The translations under genes and the position numbers were made by a program. The notes under the pieces were generated by a model. The model had not been told where the DNA came from, searched no databases, and saw only the letters and a program-made list of their open reading frames with translations. From the IMG/VR virus record IMGVR_UViG_3300029787_000114, positions 1 to 41,113 of that record: DNA of 41,113 bases, one strand, 5' to 3'. Positions 2,838 to 41,108 of this stretch are shown in pieces. Source of the DNA: a virus (taxonomy: Duplodnaviria; Caudoviricetes). Positions within the stretch are counted from its first letter, which is position 1. Every line of letters starts with the position of its first letter.

Positions 2838-3301
2838 TATGAAAATGCTCCTAGTGCATCACCCGTTCTGACTGCTTCTGAGCCGCCTGTTAATAGTGTA
2901 CCAACTGCTTTCATTTTACCAGCTTGTTTAGCTACCCTACCGGTATACAATTGAGTTTGCTCCTCTATCTTATAACCTCTTTTTTCTAGTTCTGTATTAT
3001 ACTGTATCATTGCATAGTTTCTTTCATAACTAATATCATTATCATCTACTATATCAAATTGTAACTCTACGCCAGACTTAGCAGATACTGTTTGAACCTC
3101 ACCGGTTAATATATCATATCTTCTTTTAAGATCTGCTTTATCTAGTTCAGCTTTTTGTTGTGCGATATCGGCATTATCTCTTGCCACTTGTGCATTATAT
3201 TGACTTAATTTCTCTGCATTTTTACCTTGCTGATATGCTCCAAGTGCAGATACTGCTGTACCAGCTGCCATTGCTGCCATTACTATTTTACCTGGATTCA
3301 T
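2837..3301 (-). CDS. Small internal virion protein (T7 gp14-like position)
   Basis: Hydrophobic Ala/Gly N-terminus (MAAMAAGTAVSALGAYQQG), Ala/Gln-rich coiled region with SGV motif; follows the GNAT-like gene. Confidence 0.65.
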   Translation of the reverse strand: MNPGKIVMAAMAAGTAVSALGAYQQGKNAEKLSQYNAQVARDNADIAQQKAELDKADLKRRYDILTGEVQTVSAKSGVELQFDIVDDNDISYERNYAMIQYNTELEKRGYKIEEQTQLYTGRVAKQAGKMKAVGTLLTGGSEAVRTGDALGAFS

Positions 3302-3740
3302 AAAACCTCACTAGTTTAATATAGTCTTCTTTGTTAGGACCAAACATTTTTAACTCTGCTTCTTGTTCAAAGCCAAGATACTTTGCAAACCTAATAGCAT
3401 CAGTAAAAGATTTTATTACGTGGCAATCTACTCTATGAAAATTCATTTGTTTAGATATTAAATCTAAATAGTATCTTATATCTTTAATACACCTAATCTT
3501 ATTTTTTTTAAACTCTGGCGATAAAAACATATATGCCTCTCCTACTCCATTCCAATATGGCATTACACCACATATACCAACTATCCGATTTCCGTTATAC
3601 CAAGAAAATGTTGCACCTGTATCATATAGATATTGTACTACGTTTTCCCAATTTTTTCCATAATTTTGTATAATTAGTTCTTCAGGTCCTTCTACTGTTA
3701 GCATATTAAAATGCCATGGCTCAAAAGGCACTACTATCAT
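3288..3740 (-). CDS. GNAT-fold virion assembly protein (T7 gp13-like position)
   Basis: IVGICGV..W.GVGEAY and AIRFAKYLGFEQE GNAT-like motifs; synteny. Confidence 0.65.
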   Translation of the reverse strand: MIVVPFEPWHFNMLTVEGPEELIIQNYGKNWENVVQYLYDTGATFSWYNGNRIVGICGVMPYWNGVGEAYMFLSPEFKKNKIRCIKDIRYYLDLISKQMNFHRVDCHVIKSFTDAIRFAKYLGFEQEAELKMFGPNKEDYIKLVRFYESR

Positions 3741-14672: not shown

Positions 14673-14751
14673 GAGCTTGATGGTAAATTTATATTATCAT
14701 CGATTTATTACAACTTAATTATTTTACAATCACGTACCATAGGAGGTGCAT

Positions 14752-15138
14752 ATGAGTAAAAAAAGCGTAAGCTACGTTTTTAACGTAGATGCTAATTACG
14801 ATAAAGCAACACCGCAGGTCAAGCAGATCTTAAAAGGCGTTGCAGACAGTAAGAAGCATACATTCACATTAGCGGAGATGAAAGAGTTCATCGCTAAGTT
14901 ATCAAACGATGGTTTTTTGGTTACAACGCAAGTTCCATGGCGTATCTTCCAATATTATAGACAAAGCATGATCGACAATGACTTTATGTCTCAACGTAAT
15001 GACGAGTCTATAGAAGATGTGTTGCCTGCAAATGCAAGTAAGGCAAAAGTTGCAAAGCACGCTGTAAACAAGCTATTCGATAGCAAGAAGACTGTTGTGA
15101 AGCGTAAAAATAAGCCCGCCCCGGCTATCCACATTTAG
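14752..15138 (+). CDS. Hypothetical early protein, paralogue 2, with a Lys-rich tail
   Basis: AGGAGGTGCAT-ATG at 14752; YVFNV...TTQVPWRIFQYY motif. Confidence 0.85.
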   Translation: MSKKSVSYVFNVDANYDKATPQVKQILKGVADSKKHTFTLAEMKEFIAKLSNDGFLVTTQVPWRIFQYYRQSMIDNDFMSQRNDESIEDVLPANASKAKVAKHAVNKLFDSKKTVVKRKNKPAPAIHI

Positions 15139-17863: not shown

Positions 17864-18148
17864 ATGCTAGTACAACCAAAGATCAAGAAGTTAAAAAAGA
17901 AAGATTGGCTCTACGTCTATGCACGTGACTTTAATTATCAGCTACCCGACTATCTTCCAAAACAGGCAAGAGACATCGCTAATATATTAAAAGATAAAGG
18001 CGCTTTAAAGAGAGACATCTTACTTGCTGAAATGCAAAACGTAGTAAAAACAAAACAAATCGGTGGCGCAAACAGAATATTGACTTACTACCAAAATTTA
18101 TTATGGAATCAAGAAAAAATAATAGAAGTAAGAAAGACCCCAGACTAA
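17864..18148 (+). CDS. Hypothetical protein, divergent paralogue 3
   Basis: AGAGAGG RBS; P.Q...I and TKQ....RILTYY...L....IIEVR resemble the two earlier paralogues. Confidence 0.8.
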   Translation: MLVQPKIKKLKKKDWLYVYARDFNYQLPDYLPKQARDIANILKDKGALKRDILLAEMQNVVKTKQIGGANRILTYYQNLLWNQEKIIEVRKTPD

Positions 18149-18405
18149 CGGGCCCTGATAAGAGAGACGTTGAGGAATCTAATATAAGGTTTCCTATCAC
18201 AGACGTAAAAAACACTTGTATCAAGATAGACGGCAAGATATATACAAGTGTTGGAGATTATACGGCAAGTAATACGTATGACTCAGATACAACAGGTTCA
18301 GATACAACAGGTCTTGGATTAGGTTATTATGCGCATAAGAGAGACGAAAGATTTAATTACACAGAGAGGAAAGAGTATGGCAAACGCAAGAGGAAAGGAG
18401 ATTGA
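18103..18405 (+). CDS. Hypothetical protein, 100 aa
   Basis: Fills the gap before the methyltransferase; contains an in-frame 15-nt duplication (SDTTG twice); overlaps both neighbours. Confidence 0.45.
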   Translation: MESRKNNRSKKDPRLTGPDKRDVEESNIRFPITDVKNTCIKIDGKIYTSVGDYTASNTYDSDTTGSDTTGLGLGYYAHKRDERFNYTERKEYGKRKRKGD

Positions 18406-19243
18406 CAATACCGACTTAAGTATTGATCAAGCAGAGGTCCGAGGTTTTATACACAGGGACTACATAGCACATTGTTTACGTTGGACACACGTAGCACAAT
18501 ATCTAAACGCAAAGCAAAGGTATAAGAAAGCCAATATATTAGATATAGGTTGTGGTAAGGACATGCCACTAGCTAGAATGCTTATGACAAGTAGACTAGC
18601 ACCAAAGATGTATTTAGGTTTCGAGTACAATAAGATGGATATACCTAGTATGTTTGACAACACAACGTTTAAACCTGACGTTATCTCAGGTCAAGACTTT
18701 ACGAAATACCCACCTCCACCACCTCAAGGTGCTGTATTTAATTATACAGTATGTTTCGAGGTCCTTGAGCATGTAGAACCACTTACAGCGATTGAGATAC
18801 TTAAAAAAGTTTATCTATGGACGCAGCCAGGTACTATATCATGGTGGAGTACACCGTGTTGGGACGAGAAAGTAGGCGCTGCTAAAAACCACGTTAATGA
18901 AATGACATATGAAGCAGTAGGATCTATGTTAGAGCATTGTGGCTATAAGATTCATAATCATTGGGGTACGTTTGCTTCAATTAAAGATTATAAAAAACAC
19001 CTTATTGAATGTGGCTATGGTGACTTGTTTGAACGATTAAGGTCTTATTATGACGTAAACTATTTAGCTACAATACTTGCACCACTTTGGCCGCAGTATT
19101 CTAGAAACGCTATTTGGGAAACAGAGTACGTAGGAAAACTAACTAATGAAGAGCGTTTGTTCCCACCTATAAGTAAGCTAGAGGGTAGATTAGGTTCTTC
19201 AGAAAAATGGAGGGATTTACTAACATGCGAAAATCAAGAATAA
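18377..19243 (+). CDS. Class I SAM-dependent methyltransferase (small-molecule type)
   Basis: ILDIGCG motif I, CFEVLEHV, STP...NHVNE; no DPPY/NPPY or PC motif of DNA methyltransferases; start moved to the ATG after AGAGAGG. Confidence 0.85.
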   Translation: MANARGKEIDNTDLSIDQAEVRGFIHRDYIAHCLRWTHVAQYLNAKQRYKKANILDIGCGKDMPLARMLMTSRLAPKMYLGFEYNKMDIPSMFDNTTFKPDVISGQDFTKYPPPPPQGAVFNYTVCFEVLEHVEPLTAIEILKKVYLWTQPGTISWWSTPCWDEKVGAAKNHVNEMTYEAVGSMLEHCGYKIHNHWGTFASIKDYKKHLIECGYGDLFERLRSYYDVNYLATILAPLWPQYSRNAIWETEYVGKLTNEERLFPPISKLEGRLGSSEKWRDLLTCENQE

Positions 19244-19599
19244 CATATGACGTAGCAAAATTCCATGAGAAGATGCTATTAAAATATGATGGTCCACCTA
19301 GACAATTAGAAGAAGATATTACTAGGTCTAGGATAGGTCATCTACAAGAAGAACTTAATGAGTTCCATGCCGCACTTATCTATGATAAAGGTTTACCTGA
19401 AATGCTAGACGCTTTAGTAGATATTGTTTATGTTGCAATAGGAACTTCTTATTTAATGGGTTTAGATTTTGATGAGGCTTGGCGTAGAGTTCATGAAGCT
19501 AACATGAAGAAAATACCCAAAGCTACTAAAAGATCTAAAATAGATGTTGTTAAACCAAAAGGCTGGGTAGCACCAGATTTAAAAGATTTATGCCGATAA
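19207..19599 (+). CDS. MazG-like / PRA-PH all-alpha NTP pyrophosphohydrolase
   Basis: LQEELNEF, EMLDALVDIVYVA.G, VHEANMKK and KP.GW.APD motifs; start may be 19225. Confidence 0.88.
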   Translation: MEGFTNMRKSRITYDVAKFHEKMLLKYDGPPRQLEEDITRSRIGHLQEELNEFHAALIYDKGLPEMLDALVDIVYVAIGTSYLMGLDFDEAWRRVHEANMKKIPKATKRSKIDVVKPKGWVAPDLKDLCR

Positions 19600-20588
19600 T
19601 AGTATTAGATGGCCCAGACGCAGTAGGTAAAACTACGCTTGCTAAAGCCTTTGAAAAACGATACAGAAATGTAAAGTATATTCATCTAGAATATAGATGG
19701 TCAAACAAGATGTTTCACTATCACACAGCAGCTTTTAAAAGAGCTCTTAAATGGTCGAGACAAGGTTTTATTGTAATCATAGATAGGTGGTGGATGAGTG
19801 AGTCCTGTTATGCTAAAGCATATAGAGGAGGATCTGCCTGGCCTATGCATGGCCGGTTTTTAACTAGGCTAGGACTAACACACAGTGTAGTTTATGTCAT
19901 GTGCTTACCTGATATGTTTACATTAGACGTATTTGATAAAATGAAGAGAGAGCGCAATGAACAGTATGATGACATTAAAAAGGTATGTGATTTGTATAGT
20001 CAATTATATTTCGGTGACCAATCTCATACGGAAACAGGGGACTATATTGACCAAGTTATTAAGCTAGGCGGATATATGAGAGCTTCTTATGTTATGCCAT
20101 ACAGTATACAAAACTGGGGAAGCCCAGCTCTTATGAATTGCTTTGTAGATCTTGTTTTACAACGATCAGAAGAAATGAGACAGGATCAGTTTGACGCTGT
20201 TATGACAAGTGATAATTTTTTAGGCCACAGGAAGTTTGCTAATTACTTATTAGTAGGTGAGCAAGTGAATCCTAAATTTAGAGATGTTAAATGGCCTTTT
20301 TTTGAGTACGGTAACTCAAGTCTATTTTTGACTAGCACATTACACGACCTATGGGTTAAGGAAGATAGTCTTGCATTCACTAACATTAGAGATGCCAATG
20401 GAAATGTAGATACAGAGTTTATAAGATTATGTAGTGAAGATAAGATTATCATTGCACTAGGTAGTGAAGCAAAAAACATTATGAAGAGAAGAGGATTTAC
20501 GTGTGACTACCACATAAAGCATCCGTCATGGTATAAACGATTTAACAGTAGTGAATTTAAAGAAGACTTGGAGGATATAATATGCTAG
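19590..20588 (+). CDS. dNMP (thymidylate-type) kinase fused to a UDG-superfamily domain
   Basis: N-terminal GPDAVGKTT P-loop and IIDR...SE..Y; C-terminal LLVGEQ....WPF, FTN, IIALG..A and HPS. Confidence 0.8.
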   Translation: MPIIVLDGPDAVGKTTLAKAFEKRYRNVKYIHLEYRWSNKMFHYHTAAFKRALKWSRQGFIVIIDRWWMSESCYAKAYRGGSAWPMHGRFLTRLGLTHSVVYVMCLPDMFTLDVFDKMKRERNEQYDDIKKVCDLYSQLYFGDQSHTETGDYIDQVIKLGGYMRASYVMPYSIQNWGSPALMNCFVDLVLQRSEEMRQDQFDAVMTSDNFLGHRKFANYLLVGEQVNPKFRDVKWPFFEYGNSSLFLTSTLHDLWVKEDSLAFTNIRDANGNVDTEFIRLCSEDKIIIALGSEAKNIMKRRGFTCDYHIKHPSWYKRFNSSEFKEDLEDIIC

Positions 20589-21406
20589 ATAAAAAAGACG
20601 AATATAACTTAATAAGCAGATCAGCAAGTGAGCAATGGATCAAGCAGTTAAAAAAACTAATGGACGTAAGAAAGGCTTATGAGAAAAGTGATGAAGAATA
20701 TCCAAAGCTAAACACGTATGAAATTATAAATGCAGGCACAACAGTTAACATGGCAGAATGCATACTTAATGTGCCGCAAAGAGAGCTAGGATATAAATTT
20801 ATGGCTCAGGAAGCTTTAAATATATTGATCGGCCATAATCAAGTAAATGCTATTAGAAACTTTTCTCCAACAATAACAAATTATTCTGATGATGGATATT
20901 TTTTTAATGGCCACTACGGTCCTATGATAATTGACCAGTACACTTACATTGTAGATAAGCTAGTAGAAGATAATAATACAAGACAAGCTGTTGCTACAAT
21001 ATGGAGGCCTAATCCAAGAAATAGCAAAGATATTCCTTGCACAGTTAGCGTTCAATTTCTTATAAGAGGTAATAGGCTACACTGTGTAGACACAATGAGA
21101 TCAAGCGACATCTGGTTAGGATGGCCTTACGACATATTTAATTTTACTATGATGACAGCTTATGTATCTTGCTTGTTTGGTCTCAGGACTGGTGATAGAC
21201 TTCAACTAGGCAATTTATTTTTAAATGCAGGTAGCCAACATTTATATTTAAGAGACGTTGAAAAAGCAAATAAAGTCTTAGACAAGTATCTGCATTTTAA
21301 AGTTCCTCCTTTGCAGAAGATCAAGATTGAAGACTGGACATACCCAGCTGAAATACTTAATTGGCTATATGAAAAAGCGCAGACCGGAGATTTTAGTGAG
21401 AGTTGA
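20582..21406 (+). CDS. Thymidylate synthase homologue, probably dCMP-specific (methylase or hydroxymethylase)
   Basis: TRQAV, catalytic D.PC, MRSSDIWLGWPYD (Asp where ThyA has Asn), GS.HLY. Confidence 0.85.
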   Translation: MLDKKDEYNLISRSASEQWIKQLKKLMDVRKAYEKSDEEYPKLNTYEIINAGTTVNMAECILNVPQRELGYKFMAQEALNILIGHNQVNAIRNFSPTITNYSDDGYFFNGHYGPMIIDQYTYIVDKLVEDNNTRQAVATIWRPNPRNSKDIPCTVSVQFLIRGNRLHCVDTMRSSDIWLGWPYDIFNFTMMTAYVSCLFGLRTGDRLQLGNLFLNAGSQHLYLRDVEKANKVLDKYLHFKVPPLQKIKIEDWTYPAEILNWLYEKAQTGDFSES

Positions 21407-21839
21407 TGCTGAAAATTATTTTTTAAATATGGCTGAGCTAGTATCTATGAGAGGTACATGTTCAAGAAGACAGGTAGGCTGTATACTAGTAGACAAAAAT
21501 AATTTAGTATTAGCTACAGGATATAATGGAAATCCAAGAGGACATAAACACTGTATCGATAGTCCTTGTGATGGAGCTAAATTAAAAGGTACAGGATTAG
21601 GACTAGATATTTGTGAGGCAATACATGCAGAACAGAATGCATTGCTTCAATGTAAAGATGTAGATAAAATTAAAACAGCTTATATAACAGTAAGCCCTTG
21701 TATGACTTGCGTAAAGCTATTATTAAATACGTCATGTAAAGAAATAGTTTTTATGGAAGAATATATAGATAATAATAACCCGAAAAGGATGTGGCAAAAT
21801 GGCAAAAGAAAATGGACACACGCAGGAACCGTTATTTAA
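21327..21839 (+). CDS. dCMP deaminase family protein
   Basis: TC.RRQVG, TGYNG, HAEQNA and PCMTC zinc motifs; likely start 21369. Confidence 0.9.
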   Translation: MKTGHTQLKYLIGYMKKRRPEILVRVDAENYFLNMAELVSMRGTCSRRQVGCILVDKNNLVLATGYNGNPRGHKHCIDSPCDGAKLKGTGLGLDICEAIHAEQNALLQCKDVDKIKTAYITVSPCMTCVKLLLNTSCKEIVFMEEYIDNNNPKRMWQNGKRKWTHAGTVI

Positions 21840-23703
21840 ACCGGAATCTAGATGGGAACCGCCAACCGAGTTCCCTGATCTTTCAAGCGCAAAAATTATT
21901 GCATTTGACTGTGAAACTAGTGACCCTAATCTACTTAAACACGGACCAGGAGGAGTAAGAAATGATGGAAAACTCGTTGGACTATCAATGGCGACAGACG
22001 ATGGCTTTAAAGGATATTATCCAATCAGACATGAAGGTGGAGGTAACCTTGACTGTGAGCAAGTCTTACAATGGGCGCAGGATCAACTCAAAGGAAGCAC
22101 AGATAAGGTTGGAGCAAATATCCTTTATGATTTGGAATGGCTTAGGAGCGAAGGGATTCATGTTGGAGGAAACAAATACGACATCCAAGTTGCAGAACCC
22201 CTTATTGACGAAGAAAGAAAAGAAGGATATAGTTTAGAAAAATTAAGCAGAAGATACCTTAACAAAGGTAAAGATGAAGATCTTTTAAGAGCGGCAGCTG
22301 ATGCATATAACATAGATGCTAAGGGAGAGTTATGGAAACTACCTGCTCATTACGTAGGACCTTATGGTGAGGCAGACTCTGTTAATACATTACAAGTTTT
22401 TCAAAAGCAACTACCTATTTTAAAACAACAAGAGCTTATGGACGTGTTTAAACTAGAGACAGATATAATACCGCTAATATTAGATATGAGATTTAAAGGT
22501 GTGAAGGTAGATCTAGACAATGCAGAAAAATTAAATAAAAAATATAAGCAAGAAGAAACAAAGCTATTAAAAGAACTTAGAGATTTTACAGGCTATCCAA
22601 TTGAGCCTTGGAGTAACGACCAGATAGGACACGTCTGTGAAACTAAAAAGATATGGTACCCGAGAACCGAGGCAGGTAATCCTTCATTTACTGCTAACTT
22701 TATGGAAGGAAGTAAAGAGCCTTTATTTCAAATGATAGCATCGTATAGAAAAGTAAATAAAATGAGACGAGACTTTATAGATAAAGTTATACTAGGCATG
22801 AATGTTAATGGCAGGATCCATGCACAGTTTCACCCATTAAGAAAAGATACTGATGGTACAAGAACAGGTAGGTTTAGTTCATCGAACCCTAACTTACAAC
22901 AAATACCTTCAAGAGATAAATACTGGGGACCATTAATACGATCCTTATTTATACCTGAAAATGGTTGTGACTGGTTAAGACTAGATTACAATCAACAAGA
23001 ACCAAGAGTTATGGTTCATTATGCTTGTTTAAGAGGTATAAGAGGAGCTAAAGAAGCAGCACAAGCATATAAAGAATCAGGTGCAGACTTCCATACAATG
23101 GTGTCAGAGCTTGCTAACATAGATCGTAAAGTAGCTAAGACAATTAATTTAGGTATCATGTATGGTATGGGGACGTTTAAGCTAGGACAAATGTTAGGCA
23201 TTACATATGATGAAGCCAAGTCTTTACTAGAGCAATATCATACTTCAGTACCATTTGTTAAAGGTATTATGCATGAGGCTACTAAGGCAGCGACATATAG
23301 GGGAGAGATAAAAACTTTACTAGGTAGAAAAAGACATTTTGATTATTGGACACCTGCAGATTCTACACTTAAATTTCCAAATAAAGAAATGCCATTAAGA
23401 AAACAAGATGCAGAAAAGGTATGGGAAGGTAGACCATTACAAAGAGCGTTTACTCATAAAGCTTTAAATGCTTTAATACAAGGAGCTTCTGCAGATCTTA
23501 CAAAGAAAGCTATGGTAGATATTTACAAAGAGCTAGGTGAAGTACCTCATCTACAAATACATGATGAGCTTGACTTTAGTGTAACTAGTGGAGATACAAA
23601 GACAATTAAAAAAATTGCAGACATAATGGAAAACTGTATGCAGCTTGAAGTACCACTTAAGGTATCTGTTGAAACTGGTAAATCATGGGGGAAGTTAAAA
23701 TGA
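21799..23703 (+). CDS. polA: Family A DNA polymerase with a 3'-5' exonuclease domain
   Basis: ExoI FDCET, ExoII NILYDL, TGRFSSSNPNLQQIP, motif A DYNQQEPR, motif B RKVAKTINLGIMYG, motif C IHDEL. Confidence 0.95.
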   Translation: MAKENGHTQEPLFKPESRWEPPTEFPDLSSAKIIAFDCETSDPNLLKHGPGGVRNDGKLVGLSMATDDGFKGYYPIRHEGGGNLDCEQVLQWAQDQLKGSTDKVGANILYDLEWLRSEGIHVGGNKYDIQVAEPLIDEERKEGYSLEKLSRRYLNKGKDEDLLRAAADAYNIDAKGELWKLPAHYVGPYGEADSVNTLQVFQKQLPILKQQELMDVFKLETDIIPLILDMRFKGVKVDLDNAEKLNKKYKQEETKLLKELRDFTGYPIEPWSNDQIGHVCETKKIWYPRTEAGNPSFTANFMEGSKEPLFQMIASYRKVNKMRRDFIDKVILGMNVNGRIHAQFHPLRKDTDGTRTGRFSSSNPNLQQIPSRDKYWGPLIRSLFIPENGCDWLRLDYNQQEPRVMVHYACLRGIRGAKEAAQAYKESGADFHTMVSELANIDRKVAKTINLGIMYGMGTFKLGQMLGITYDEAKSLLEQYHTSVPFVKGIMHEATKAATYRGEIKTLLGRKRHFDYWTPADSTLKFPNKEMPLRKQDAEKVWEGRPLQRAFTHKALNALIQGASADLTKKAMVDIYKELGEVPHLQIHDELDFSVTSGDTKTIKKIADIMENCMQLEVPLKVSVETGKSWGKLK

Positions 23704-39125: not shown

Positions 39126-41108
39126 TTAATCCTCCCCGTTTAATACGCATTGAGTTATTGATTTTTTAGCTGCTGCTGTTGCCTTTGTCTTTGCTTGAGA
39201 TCTAAGTTGTGATTCTTCAAGGTCTCTCAGCATCGCTATGTCATCAGGCGACATAGTACCGTCTTCTGCCATAGCCTTTAGCTCTTCTTCAAATTCTTTT
39301 TTCATAGCTTTGTATGCAGCTTCTTCTTCTCTTAACTGAACTTCTAAAGAATCATCATCTATTTTTTGCACTTTTTCTCTCGCGTTTAATGCTCCTTCTT
39401 TAGCATTTGGCAACATAGTATCATCCATAAATTGATTTTTAGGATCTTTTTTATATGATTTACTTTTATCAATAACAGCATCTAAAGTAATAGCATCATC
39501 ACCTGATCTATTTACAAATACTTCAGCATCAACTTCAAGTCTTCTATTTTCACCTTTACCTCTCCACACTGCTTTTCTAATTCTTAAAGATGTATTTACG
39601 TCTAATATAATTTCCATTTCTTTCTTATTACCCATTATTAATTTTGTACCTCTTGGTACAAATATTTTTATTAATGCAGGAATTTTTTCTTTTTTACTAC
39701 TAGAAGCACTCGCTGTTCTTTCAGCAAATCTTAACGCTGTATTTTTATTTAAACTACCATTTAAGAATCCTTCAGTTTGTATTACTTTACCTACTAGTCC
39801 TTTTGCAGATTTTTTGTTGTTAACAATAGGCCCTGTAGGTTCTCCATGCACTTGAAAATGGCCTGCATTTTTACCTGTGTAAATTATTATATTTTCATCT
39901 AGCCCATCTGACTTTGCAATAGCATCTCTTAACAATTGTATTTGCTCTCTTATCTCGGCTATAGGCTGTTTTCCTTTACCTGGCTTATATGATTGACCTA
40001 GCACACGTTGCATATTAAAATTAAAGTCATCCCATCTTTGTATCACACTAACTTCTTCGGCAGTGAATTTACTGTTGTTAGCTTCTACTTTATCCATTAT
40101 AGATTTTGCTATTTTATCAACATCAGCAAAAGGTTTTTTATTTAAGATTTGTCTCTTACCTGTTTGAATGTCCATTTTAGATATTATTCCATCAGCTTCC
40201 ATTTGTCTAACCATGGCTGAAGCTTTGTTATATCCTATCTTAAATTCTTTTTGTAATTGAGTAATTATTTGCTTTGTATCTTTTGCTTTTAAAGTATACT
40301 TTACAGCAGAACCATACATTTCATCGGGAACAAGCTTATCTAAGTCTACTTTATTTTCTTCTAACTCAACTAAAGATTTTTTTTCACCTTTAACTTTTTT
40401 TTCAGATGAGACGTGATCCTCATTTAAAAGAACGTCATCAGATGCTTTATCTTTAGCTTCTGCAAGTTTTGAAGGACTATATTTAGGATCAAGCATTTTA
40501 TAAATAGGCTCGTAGTTTCCTACTCTTGTAGGACCTTGTCCTGGTAAATCAACTAATAGTCTTCCATCTGCTTTTGGTTTTGTTGCTGAATCATAAACTG
40601 CTCTAAACATTAAATCAACATTTATTGCTTTATCAGCTTGAGCTTGGTTATGGGCTAGAGATACTGTTGCATTAAAAGTTTCTCTATCTAGACCTTTAAC
40701 CATGTCTTTAACTTTACCACCACCTACGTGTAATCCACCACCAACAACAGTAGAAAAAGCTATATTTAACAGTGACTGTGTAAGACCATAATTAGCATAT
40801 TCTCGTTGTTTTTGCATCAATATAGGAACTTCAAAACCAGTAGAGTATAGTGCCATTGTTTTAGCGCCTCTATAAAATCTAGCAGTAGCAAGACCTGATT
40901 TCGCAACATTAGCTAAAAATCCTCCCTTTGAGACAAAAGGCTCTGGCATAAGTAAAAGTCCAAAATTTACAGGATCTACAAACGCAGAACCTAAAGTGGA
41001 AAAAAACATACCAACTTTTTGAAAACCAGAAGCGGCTTCATATACTTTAGCCATATCTATTTCTTCTATTTTTCTTTCATGAATAAGCTGCGCTTCTGTA
41101 ACAGTCAT
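39126..41108 (-). CDS. 3' part of an internal virion protein with FtsK-gamma-like and ADP-ribosyltransferase-like domains (true start at 708)
   Basis: DEMYGSAV...LQKEFKIGYNKASAMVRQMEADGIIS...GKRQIL; IIIYTG...GFLNGS...IFVPRG...EMEIIL. Confidence 0.8.
   Translation of the reverse strand: MTVTEAQLIHERKIEEIDMAKVYEAASGFQKVGMFFSTLGSAFVDPVNFGLLLMPEPFVSKGGFLANVAKSGLATARFYRGAKTMALYSTGFEVPILMQKQREYANYGLTQSLLNIAFSTVVGGGLHVGGGKVKDMVKGLDRETFNATVSLAHNQAQADKAINVDLMFRAVYDSATKPKADGRLLVDLPGQGPTRVGNYEPIYKMLDPKYSPSKLAEAKDKASDDVLLNEDHVSSEKKVKGEKKSLVELEENKVDLDKLVPDEMYGSAVKYTLKAKDTKQIITQLQKEFKIGYNKASAMVRQMEADGIISKMDIQTGKRQILNKKPFADVDKIAKSIMDKVEANNSKFTAEEVSVIQRWDDFNFNMQRVLGQSYKPGKGKQPIAEIREQIQLLRDAIAKSDGLDENIIIYTGKNAGHFQVHGEPTGPIVNNKKSAKGLVGKVIQTEGFLNGSLNKNTALRFAERTASASSSKKEKIPALIKIFVPRGTKLIMGNKKEMEIILDVNTSLRIRKAVWRGKGENRRLEVDAEVFVNRSGDDAITLDAVIDKSKSYKKDPKNQFMDDTMLPNAKEGALNAREKVQKIDDDSLEVQLREEEAAYKAMKKEFEEELKAMAEDGTMSPDDIAMLRDLEESQLRSQAKTKATAAAKKSITQCVLNGED

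Follow-up and report, generated by a model that had tools for sequence, protein, structure and literature searches.

The 5-hydroxymethylcytosine (5hmC) pathway of phage T4 comprises the deoxycytidine monophosphate (dCMP) hydroxymethylase gp42, the gp1 kinase, the gp56 dCTPase, the Cd deaminase and the alpha- and beta-glucosyltransferases. Here we analyse a five-gene cassette that may specify a related route ending in the O-methylation of 5hmC to 5-methoxymethylcytosine. It is found in the virus record IMGVR_UViG_3300029787_000114 (Duplodnaviria; Caudoviricetes), the full 41,113 bases of which constitute the window discussed below. The cassette encodes a class I S-adenosylmethionine (SAM)-dependent methyltransferase, a MazG-like pyrophosphatase, a kinase fused to a uracil-DNA glycosylase (UDG)-like domain, a thymidylate-synthase (TS) homologue and a dCMP deaminase, and lies directly upstream of a family A DNA polymerase (PolA). 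The T4 pathway shares with the window a synthase with Asp at positions 143, 169 and 177 in ThyA numbering (D143/D169/D177), a kinase, a pyrophosphatase, a deaminase and a transferase-like last step (PMC13326640). Unlike T4, the window has the SAM enzyme instead of a glucosyltransferase, and is a small podovirus-type genome with PolA and the kinase-UDG fusion; neither ThyA nor ThyX was found in this complete genome. A phage-encoded DNA glucosyltransferase of the T4 type was likewise not found among its 46 open reading frames (ORFs) with Pfam, PHROGs and our own profiles, although a very remote one is possible.

A second point of comparison is the 5hmC carbamoyltransferase identified by MetaGPA, which, encoded next to an Asp177 synthase, transfers a non-sugar group to the oxygen of the 5-hydroxymethyl moiety, as we propose here (PMC8670742); in the window the donor would be SAM and the product a methyl ether, and the fold differs. 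The mSCD-B5/Xp12-type neighbourhoods share with the window a core of TS, dCMP deaminase, PRA-PH and PolA, for which enrichment among contigs with modified cytosine has already been published (bioRxiv 2024.12.05.627091). The synthases tested there made 5-methyl-dCMP (5mdCMP), whereas the window has the hydroxymethylase residue, and the accessible part of that report mentions neither the methyltransferase nor the UDG domain for these neighbourhoods. The initial annotation of the window had called the whole pathway uncharacterised; because the four-domain core is already published, this holds for the methyltransferase and UDG add-on only. In the CmoA/CmoX carboxymethylcytosine system the C5-methylase homologue CmoX and the ligase CmoY are encoded beside a carboxy-SAM (Cx-SAM) synthase (PMC12783734); no C5-methylase-like gene was found in the window, and this reading was rejected for it. 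Our literature search, with subscription papers and bioRxiv supplements outside its scope, returned no report of 5-methoxymethylcytosine in DNA or of this methyltransferase family. The cassette may already have been predicted in the survey of base-modifying systems of DNA that Iyer and colleagues carried out computationally in 2013.

The TS homologue (20582..21406, plus strand; PF00303, E 7.9e-18) carries the residues by which its product can be predicted. Published diagnostics in ThyA numbering associate Asp177 with dCMP, Asp or Glu at 143 with a non-methyl product and Asn169 with 5-hydroxy-dCMP (PMC13326640). In the window enzyme Asp150, Cys153, Thr154, Asp176 and Asp184 correspond to ThyA 143, 146, 147, 169 and 177, so that it has the dCMP-preference residue (Asp184) as well as an acidic residue at 143 (Asp150) together with the catalytic Cys (Cys153); the D143/D169/D177 signature is also found in 71 of 71 synthases of one alignment. 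The best solved match is the CMP 5-hydroxymethylase MilA (E 3.4e-17), with which the diagnostic residues align, whereas canonical synthases have Leu and Asn at the aligned diagnostic positions; the protein scores under every NCBIfam thymidylate synthase cut-off. A 5-hydroxy-dCMP synthase of the RB69 gp48 type was rejected since ThyA position 169 is occupied by Asp176 and not Asn, as were an Xp12-type dCMP methyltransferase and ThyA, which need Leu143 (both) and Asn177 (ThyA), both positions being Asp in the window. Judged by these residues, the product is very probably 5-hydroxymethyl-dCMP (5hm-dCMP) and the locus a 5hmC replacement route; this bears out the dCMP hydroxymethylation step of the initial annotation and speaks against the formation of dTMP from dUMP, which it had named as a refutation. 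Separately, a D143/D169/D177 synthase with the kinase only, and with no transferase in the fetched stretch, was observed in T7-like phages that may hold bare 5hmC (the cultured Pelagibacter phage HTVC200P (L005), and loci L155, L160, L176, L181 and L195). In locus L120 (4287-8840) a hydroxymethylase of the dUMP type (Asn177) is accompanied by a TET-associated glycosyltransferase-like gene and by a 5-hydroxymethyldeoxyuridine (5hmdU) kinase domain.

The methyltransferase (18377..19243, plus strand; 288 aa; PF13489, E 7e-08), the start of which was set by aligned homologues and an AG-rich stretch upstream, belongs to a phage-borne family. Its relatives of similar length number 1159 at E up to 0.001 and 344 representatives (50% clustering) at E up to 1e-30. 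A search of 185,579 prokaryote genomes gave 13 loci, each from a metagenome-assembled record and none on a contig longer than 54 kb; other cassette genes are present in 10 of them, and the look-alike clusters in the Atlas are 95-100% viral. The structural model has a class I fold (predicted local distance difference test, pLDDT, 90), and on this model the fold search identifies the protein as a generic class I enzyme only, with no single standout substrate. A more specific indication comes from the site E128-x-x-E131-H132...H172-x-x-E175, intact in all 138 of the methyltransferase clusters defined below, which by sequence spacing corresponds to the Hen1-like ExxEH...H ligands on a class I fold; the catalytic Mg ligands of HEN1 are E132, E135, H136 and H181 (PMC10781085). 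In a profile alignment bacterial Hen1 (3jwi) and UbiG have counterparts of the ExxEH and STP motifs; the family shares with both the class I fold, ExxEH with a downstream His, and a similar spacing. Since Hen1 and UbiG are O-methyltransferases, this site points to O-methylation. The enzyme nevertheless differs from Hen1 and UbiG: identity is about 16%, no Pnkp-type or ligase partner was found among the neighbour genes scanned, and the family is instead tied to DNA cytosine genes. Hen1 enzymes are 2'-O-methyltransferases of RNA 3' ends, in bacteria with a Pnkp/ligase partner; the NCBIfam Hen1 profile gives no match to the window protein at E 0.01. The PC and (D/N/S)PP(Y/F) motifs are the catalytic signatures of DNA C5- and amino-methyltransferases; neither is present among its invariant columns, and Pfam yields no DNA-methylase match. 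Thus, the enzyme described earlier as a small-molecule-type SAM methyltransferase keeps its SAM dependence and exchanges the generic small-molecule label for a Hen1/UbiG-type metal site. A 222-aa methyltransferase of L113, L114 and L198 proved to be of a different family and was taken out of the profile. A second small methyltransferase family lies beside 5hmC cassettes (L113:4233-4901, L198:4213-4860, L152:5558-6235); in its L113 copy the metal motif has the variant form HVLEH...NH.

To characterize the linkage of the methyltransferase to the synthase, loci were fetched by the former using alignment queries (the best 80 of 373 matches, 27 of 27, 13 of 13, and 79 from the best 80 of 97), a single-sequence locus search having given nothing, and synthase-centred and GenBank loci were additionally taken in. 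The resulting 258 methyltransferase loci form 138 clusters at 90% identity, and a synthase is encoded within the fetched stretch in 120 of them. Of these linked synthases 119 are D/E143-D169-D177 and one has position 143 unparsed; none of the 120 has Leu143 or Asn177. Several of the 18 synthase-less clusters end at a contig edge, and when 10 of their whole records were searched, six held a synthase elsewhere, always with D169 and D177 and with position 143 being Asp in five and Asn in one; the four records without one are 38-44% complete. MazG accompanies the methyltransferase in 113 of the 138 clusters, the deaminase in 108, the kinase in 100, the UDG domain in 76, a C5-methylase-like gene in 16 and ThyX in 10. 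The concern that the methyltransferase might be unlinked to the cassette in relatives is thereby answered, as far as sequence can do so. The linked synthases are of at least three motif types, the window type and the T4-gp42 type among them. In a quick tree they occupy separate long branches, so the link does not go back to a single block inherited as a whole; being a quick one, the tree is not used to order the events. In the reverse direction, 88 synthase-centred loci (the best 80 of 587 among them, from a query biased toward methyltransferase-linked synthases) gave 70 clusters, of which six were dropped (one of Asn177 type and five with a short upstream flank); the methyltransferase is present in 48 of the remaining 64. 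These patterns indicate a one-way dependence, in which the methyltransferase would need the 5hmC synthase and not vice versa.

The 16 synthase clusters without the methyltransferase contain, in the fetched stretch, a carbamoyltransferase in L143, a gene resembling the T4 beta-glucosyltransferase (BGT) in L117, a family that we term X353 in four, and no transferase in ten. L143 and L117 are of the same synthase clade; in the former the carbamoyltransferase stands directly ahead of MazG, kinase and synthase, i.e., in the methyltransferase's slot, and in the latter the BGT-like gene follows the synthase. Neither of these two as seeds matched any of the 138 methyltransferase clusters. Carbamoyltransferases are a proven class of 5hmC-acting transferase (PMC8670742), and the methyltransferase thus alternates with known 5hmC transferases. 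L143 is a direct example for the argument, made at the outset, that the methyltransferase occupies the slot of such an enzyme.

The best single reading of these observations is that the methyltransferase O-methylates 5hmC to 5-methoxymethylcytosine, to which we give about an even chance. From the genes, folds, residues and linkage we infer each activity of the following pathway. The TS homologue would convert dCMP to 5hm-dCMP, which the fused kinase would phosphorylate, a host nucleoside diphosphate (NDP) kinase completing the triphosphate. The MazG-like enzyme would likely destroy dCTP, as well as dUTP, while dCMP would likely be drained to dUMP by the deaminase, with dTMP arising via a host enzyme, or via ThyX in relatives carrying one. 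PolA would incorporate 5hm-dCTP, after which the methyltransferase, with a Hen1-type divalent metal, would activate the 5-hydroxymethyl oxygen and move the SAM methyl group onto it; finally, the UDG-like domain, found almost only alongside the methyltransferase, may excise uracil or a deaminated modified base. The full proposal is more tentative, falling somewhat short of even: all cytosine would be replaced by 5-methoxymethylcytosine, formed from 5hmC within DNA by an O-methyltransferase that is metal-dependent and of the Hen1 type. This would give a third 5hmC cap beside sugar and carbamoyl, small enough to evade 5hmC- and glucosyl-5hmC-specific restriction alike, with a dedicated UDG-like domain for repair of its deamination product. 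If true, it would extend the set of DNA bases by one and reveal a new enzyme class for 5hmC modification, one that is widespread among environmental phages and spans hundreds of lineages (the 344 proteins above); able to label 5hmC from SAM, the enzyme would be a candidate for use in 5hmC mapping.

Whether the methyl group would be added to DNA or to the nucleotide can be approached through gene fusions and neighbourhoods. Among 29 long relatives scanned, chosen from 150 listed, 12 are fusions in which the methyltransferase follows a C5-DNA-methylase-like domain (PF00145) whose PC motif is intact, and such fusions adjoin D/D/D synthases in L212, L217 and L230; in L231, L242, L261 and L284 the methyltransferase gene stands directly before the large terminase, and in G002 it is about 50 kb from the synthase. 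Because of the fusions to DNA-methylase-like domains and the positions beside terminase, action on DNA seems somewhat more likely than action on the nucleotide. The operon position and the lack of an evident DNA-binding domain in the window methyltransferase hint at the nucleotide level, as does P0222, in which the methyltransferase is fused to MazG.

The C5-DNA-methylase-like family is itself unusual in having an altered motif I with an intact PC, and it occurs in or beside 5hm-dCMP cassettes (P0189, P0221, P0223, P0228, P0231, P0232, P0234, P0245, P0246, P0257, P0258, P0268, L212:9989-11908 and L113:4898-5956), a puzzling setting where C5 should already be blocked. The motif-X Asn position is Arg or Lys in 12 of 21 ORFs and Leu in one, with eight unparsed; Arg/Lys at this position is the feature that marks CmoX as using an anionic cofactor. 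At L252 (7521-8369) a 5hmdU DNA kinase helical domain is encoded near a methyltransferase and a D/D/D synthase cassette.

Two cultured phages carry the cassette, making its product cheap to test. In the Stenotrophomonas phage AXL3, gp31-gp27 are the five cassette genes in window order, and the Pseudoxanthomonas phage PW916 has the same genes in the same order; their methyltransferase is 30% identical to that of the window. The AXL3 synthase has the same three Asp (143/169/177), and its genome encodes a separate ThyX, unlike the window. The papers on both phages assign these genes to thymidylate synthesis and do not name the modification (AXL3: PMC7504290); restriction digests are given in the AXL3 paper and not in that on PW916. 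Of 37 enzymes applied to AXL3 DNA two cut, both with A/T-only sites, and the 35 with G/C-containing sites do not (PMC7504290). The DNA of this relative is therefore non-canonical at G/C-containing sites, contrary to the refuting case of canonical nucleosides only, and the proposed base, if real, would give its restriction resistance a name. The AXL3 genome has 13 KpnI sites, 21 XmnI-type sites (PdmI being an XmnI isoschizomer) and one XbaI site, all reported uncut. Since KpnI-HF digests fully 5-methylcytosine (5mC) Xp12 DNA completely (PMC7653180), the 13 uncut KpnI sites indicate that AXL3 DNA is not plain 5mC. The XmnI resistance is a weak hint only, because 5mC Xp12 DNA resists XmnI too (PMC7653180). 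Hpy188I and BtsCI, which have 100 and 106 sites in AXL3, digest T4gt DNA to completion and leave glucosylated T4 DNA uncut (PMC7653180). In AXL3 a small helical domain is encoded as a separate gene before the methyltransferase (gp32, L001:8243-8842); it is fused to the methyltransferase in several relatives (E 4e-07) and recurs at the N-terminus of P0222 and in the linker of the C5-methylase fusions.

Several observations weigh against O-methylation of 5hmC. The main chemical gap is that the HEN1 metal chelates a vicinal diol (PMC10781085), which 5hmC does not have. In the fold search ChlM (Z 17.9) and 4htf (Z 17.2) outrank HEN1 (3htx, Z 15.4, root-mean-square deviation 2.9) and many N- and C-methylases tie, and Hen1 is not among the Foldseek rows listed for the model. 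The MetaGPA screen gave no significance to Methyltransf_23, a very broad Pfam family (27 versus 1436 contigs, corrected p 1), and our seed searches for absent transferases are insensitive, the ThyX seed having missed the annotated ThyX of AXL3. The AXL3 digests are explained by 5hmC alone: T4gt DNA, which is mainly 5hmC, resists nearly the whole panel, with only XbaI and XmnI cutting partly (PMC7653180). They show a modified G/C base in which a methyl group is not distinguishable, and we discarded them as a means to separate 5hmC from its methyl ether. The 16 of 64 synthase clusters without the methyltransferase, ten of them with no other transferase in the fetched stretch, show further that the synthase does not depend on it.

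The last two points would suit plain 5hmC in DNA, with the methyltransferase directed at something else, such as an RNA end (as for Hen1), a protein or a small metabolite; its nearest motif relatives do act on RNA ends and quinone precursors. The cassette would then replace cytosine by 5hmC in the ordinary way, and its methyltransferase would be an orphan. We consider this unlikely, though the best-surviving alternative, since no methyltransferase cluster was seen with a dTMP-, 5mC- or dUMP-type synthase, relatives fuse the enzyme to cytosine-DNA-methylase-like domains, and it stands in the slot of the proven carbamoyltransferase class (PMC8670742).

Methylation of 5hmC at another atom, most plausibly N4, would give an isomer of equal mass. 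The equally good fold matches include many N-methyltransferases, and N4 adjoins the hydroxymethyl oxygen on the cytosine ring; the conserved ExxEH...H site, however, matches the O-methyltransferases Hen1 and UbiG, and a DPPY/NPPY/SPPY-type amino-methylase motif is not among the invariant columns, which makes N-methylation improbable.

A comparably small probability attaches to a route in which 5hmC is first glycosylated by an undetected transferase and the methyltransferase then O-methylates the sugar. It would suit Hen1-type sites, which chelate vicinal diols (PMC10781085), and it draws on the fusion of X353, a possible glycosyltransferase, to the methyltransferase in P0235, its adjoining position in L233 and L234, and NDP-sugar genes near the methyltransferase in L016 and L030, all of which also weigh against direct methylation of 5hmC. 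However, X353 is absent from the fetched stretch in 136 of the 138 clusters, and the window and AXL3 show no match to X353, BGT, TAGT, GT8 or carbamoyltransferase probes, a search of low sensitivity that could miss a very remote one. As had been claimed from the sequence, Pfam and PHROGs identify no glycosyl- or carbamoyltransferase among the 46 main ORFs of the window (nor a second thymidylate synthase), and all ORFs of more than 250 aa in its replication arm carry some other assignment. X353 proteins, about 350 aa long and without a Pfam match, are restricted to viruses; they are encoded within 5hmC cassettes, where the C5-methylase-like gene frequently accompanies them (L113:6311-7372, L198:6314-7354, L169:4667-5683, L116:12033-13058, L233:11158-12276, L234:8811-9881 and the N-terminus of P0235). 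Glyco_trans_1_2 is assigned to 12% of one X353 look-alike cluster in the Atlas; as the X353 profile found no match to the L117 BGT-like protein (E 0.29), its possible role as a new DNA glycosyltransferase is a lead only.

The least probable alternative, still below the previous two, is that the cassette makes 5-methyl-dCMP, partly deaminated to dTMP (the New England Biolabs mSCD/Xp12 type), or 5hm-dCMP deaminated to a modified uracil replacing thymine: Asp177 synthases beside such deaminases gave 5mdCMP in five of seven tests, activity on 5-hydroxymethyldeoxycytidine (5hmdC) was seen for 7 of 90 deaminases (bioRxiv 2024.12.05.627091), and the window lacks ThyX and ThyA, yet its position 143 is Asp and not Leu, AXL3 resists KpnI and the G/C-site enzymes while A/T-only ones cut, and AXL3 and 10 of the 138 clusters (fetched stretch) have their own ThyX.

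The kinase-UDG fusion (19590..20588, plus strand; 332 aa) consists of an N-terminal dNMP kinase of about 195 aa and a C-terminal UDG domain of about 130 aa, the latter missed by Pfam, PHROGs and NCBIfam. Structure comparison of its AlphaFold model (pLDDT 96) pairs the UDG half with UdgX and family-4 UDGs (Foldseek probability 1.00, E 1.4e-4 to 8e-4) and the N-terminal half with the kinase-like YorR and thymidylate kinases. The UDG domain keeps the GE...PF, Asn and HP motifs, with G223, P236, N265, H311 and P312 conserved. Family 4 and UdgX are typified by four Cys (or Cys/His) iron-sulfur ligands; there is no conserved Cys in this domain, so the ligand set is absent. Across the 64 synthase clusters, 31 have both the methyltransferase and the UDG domain, 17 the methyltransferase alone, one the UDG domain alone and 15 neither (Fisher p 8e-5, uncorrected for kinship).

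The remaining genes complete the setting. The genome is 100% complete (CheckV) with 36% G+C, its podovirus-type virion genes lying on the minus strand and its replication arm on the plus strand. The MazG-like (PRA-PH, DR2231-like) dNTP pyrophosphatase (19225..19599, plus strand; 124 aa; PF01503, E 3.5e-11), whose best solved relative is DR2231, is predicted to remove dCTP and/or dUTP. For the Zn-type dCMP deaminase (21396..21839, plus strand; about 147 aa; PF00383, E 1.3e-20) the likeliest start is GTG 21396, which a GGAG precedes, in preference to TTG 21327 of the longest ORF; the enzyme is predicted to convert dCMP to dUMP, feeding the dTMP supply. PolA (21799..23703, plus strand), with a 3'-5' exonuclease, is presumed to incorporate modified dCTP; a DpoZ identity was rejected (320 bits against a 500-bit cut-off), and PurZ was not found in the Pfam scan. 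As the initial annotation had it, the five genes overlap upstream of PolA, all on the plus strand, neighbours from the methyltransferase through to PolA sharing 19, 10, 7, 11 and 41 nt. The identical five genes recur in identical order in AXL3 and dozens of IMG/VR contigs, and the order is thus not due to chance.

Directly upstream of the methyltransferase is a 94-aa ORF (17864..18148, plus strand) that close relatives keep in this position, with tblastn matches immediately ahead of the methyltransferase in 11 of 85 loci, and that has no match to the small helical domain fused to some methyltransferase relatives. It shows weak mutual similarity to the plus-strand ORF 14746-15138 (E about 0.003-0.006 in a three-sequence search), and the two are possibly paralogous helical DNA-binding proteins. 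On the minus strand, an internal virion protein (3288-3740) has a GNAT fold, and a 660-aa protein of the virion region (39126-41108) combines FtsK-gamma with an ADP-ribosyltransferase domain (PF03496, E 1.3e-10), and resembles the ADP-ribosyltransferases of phage host takeover.

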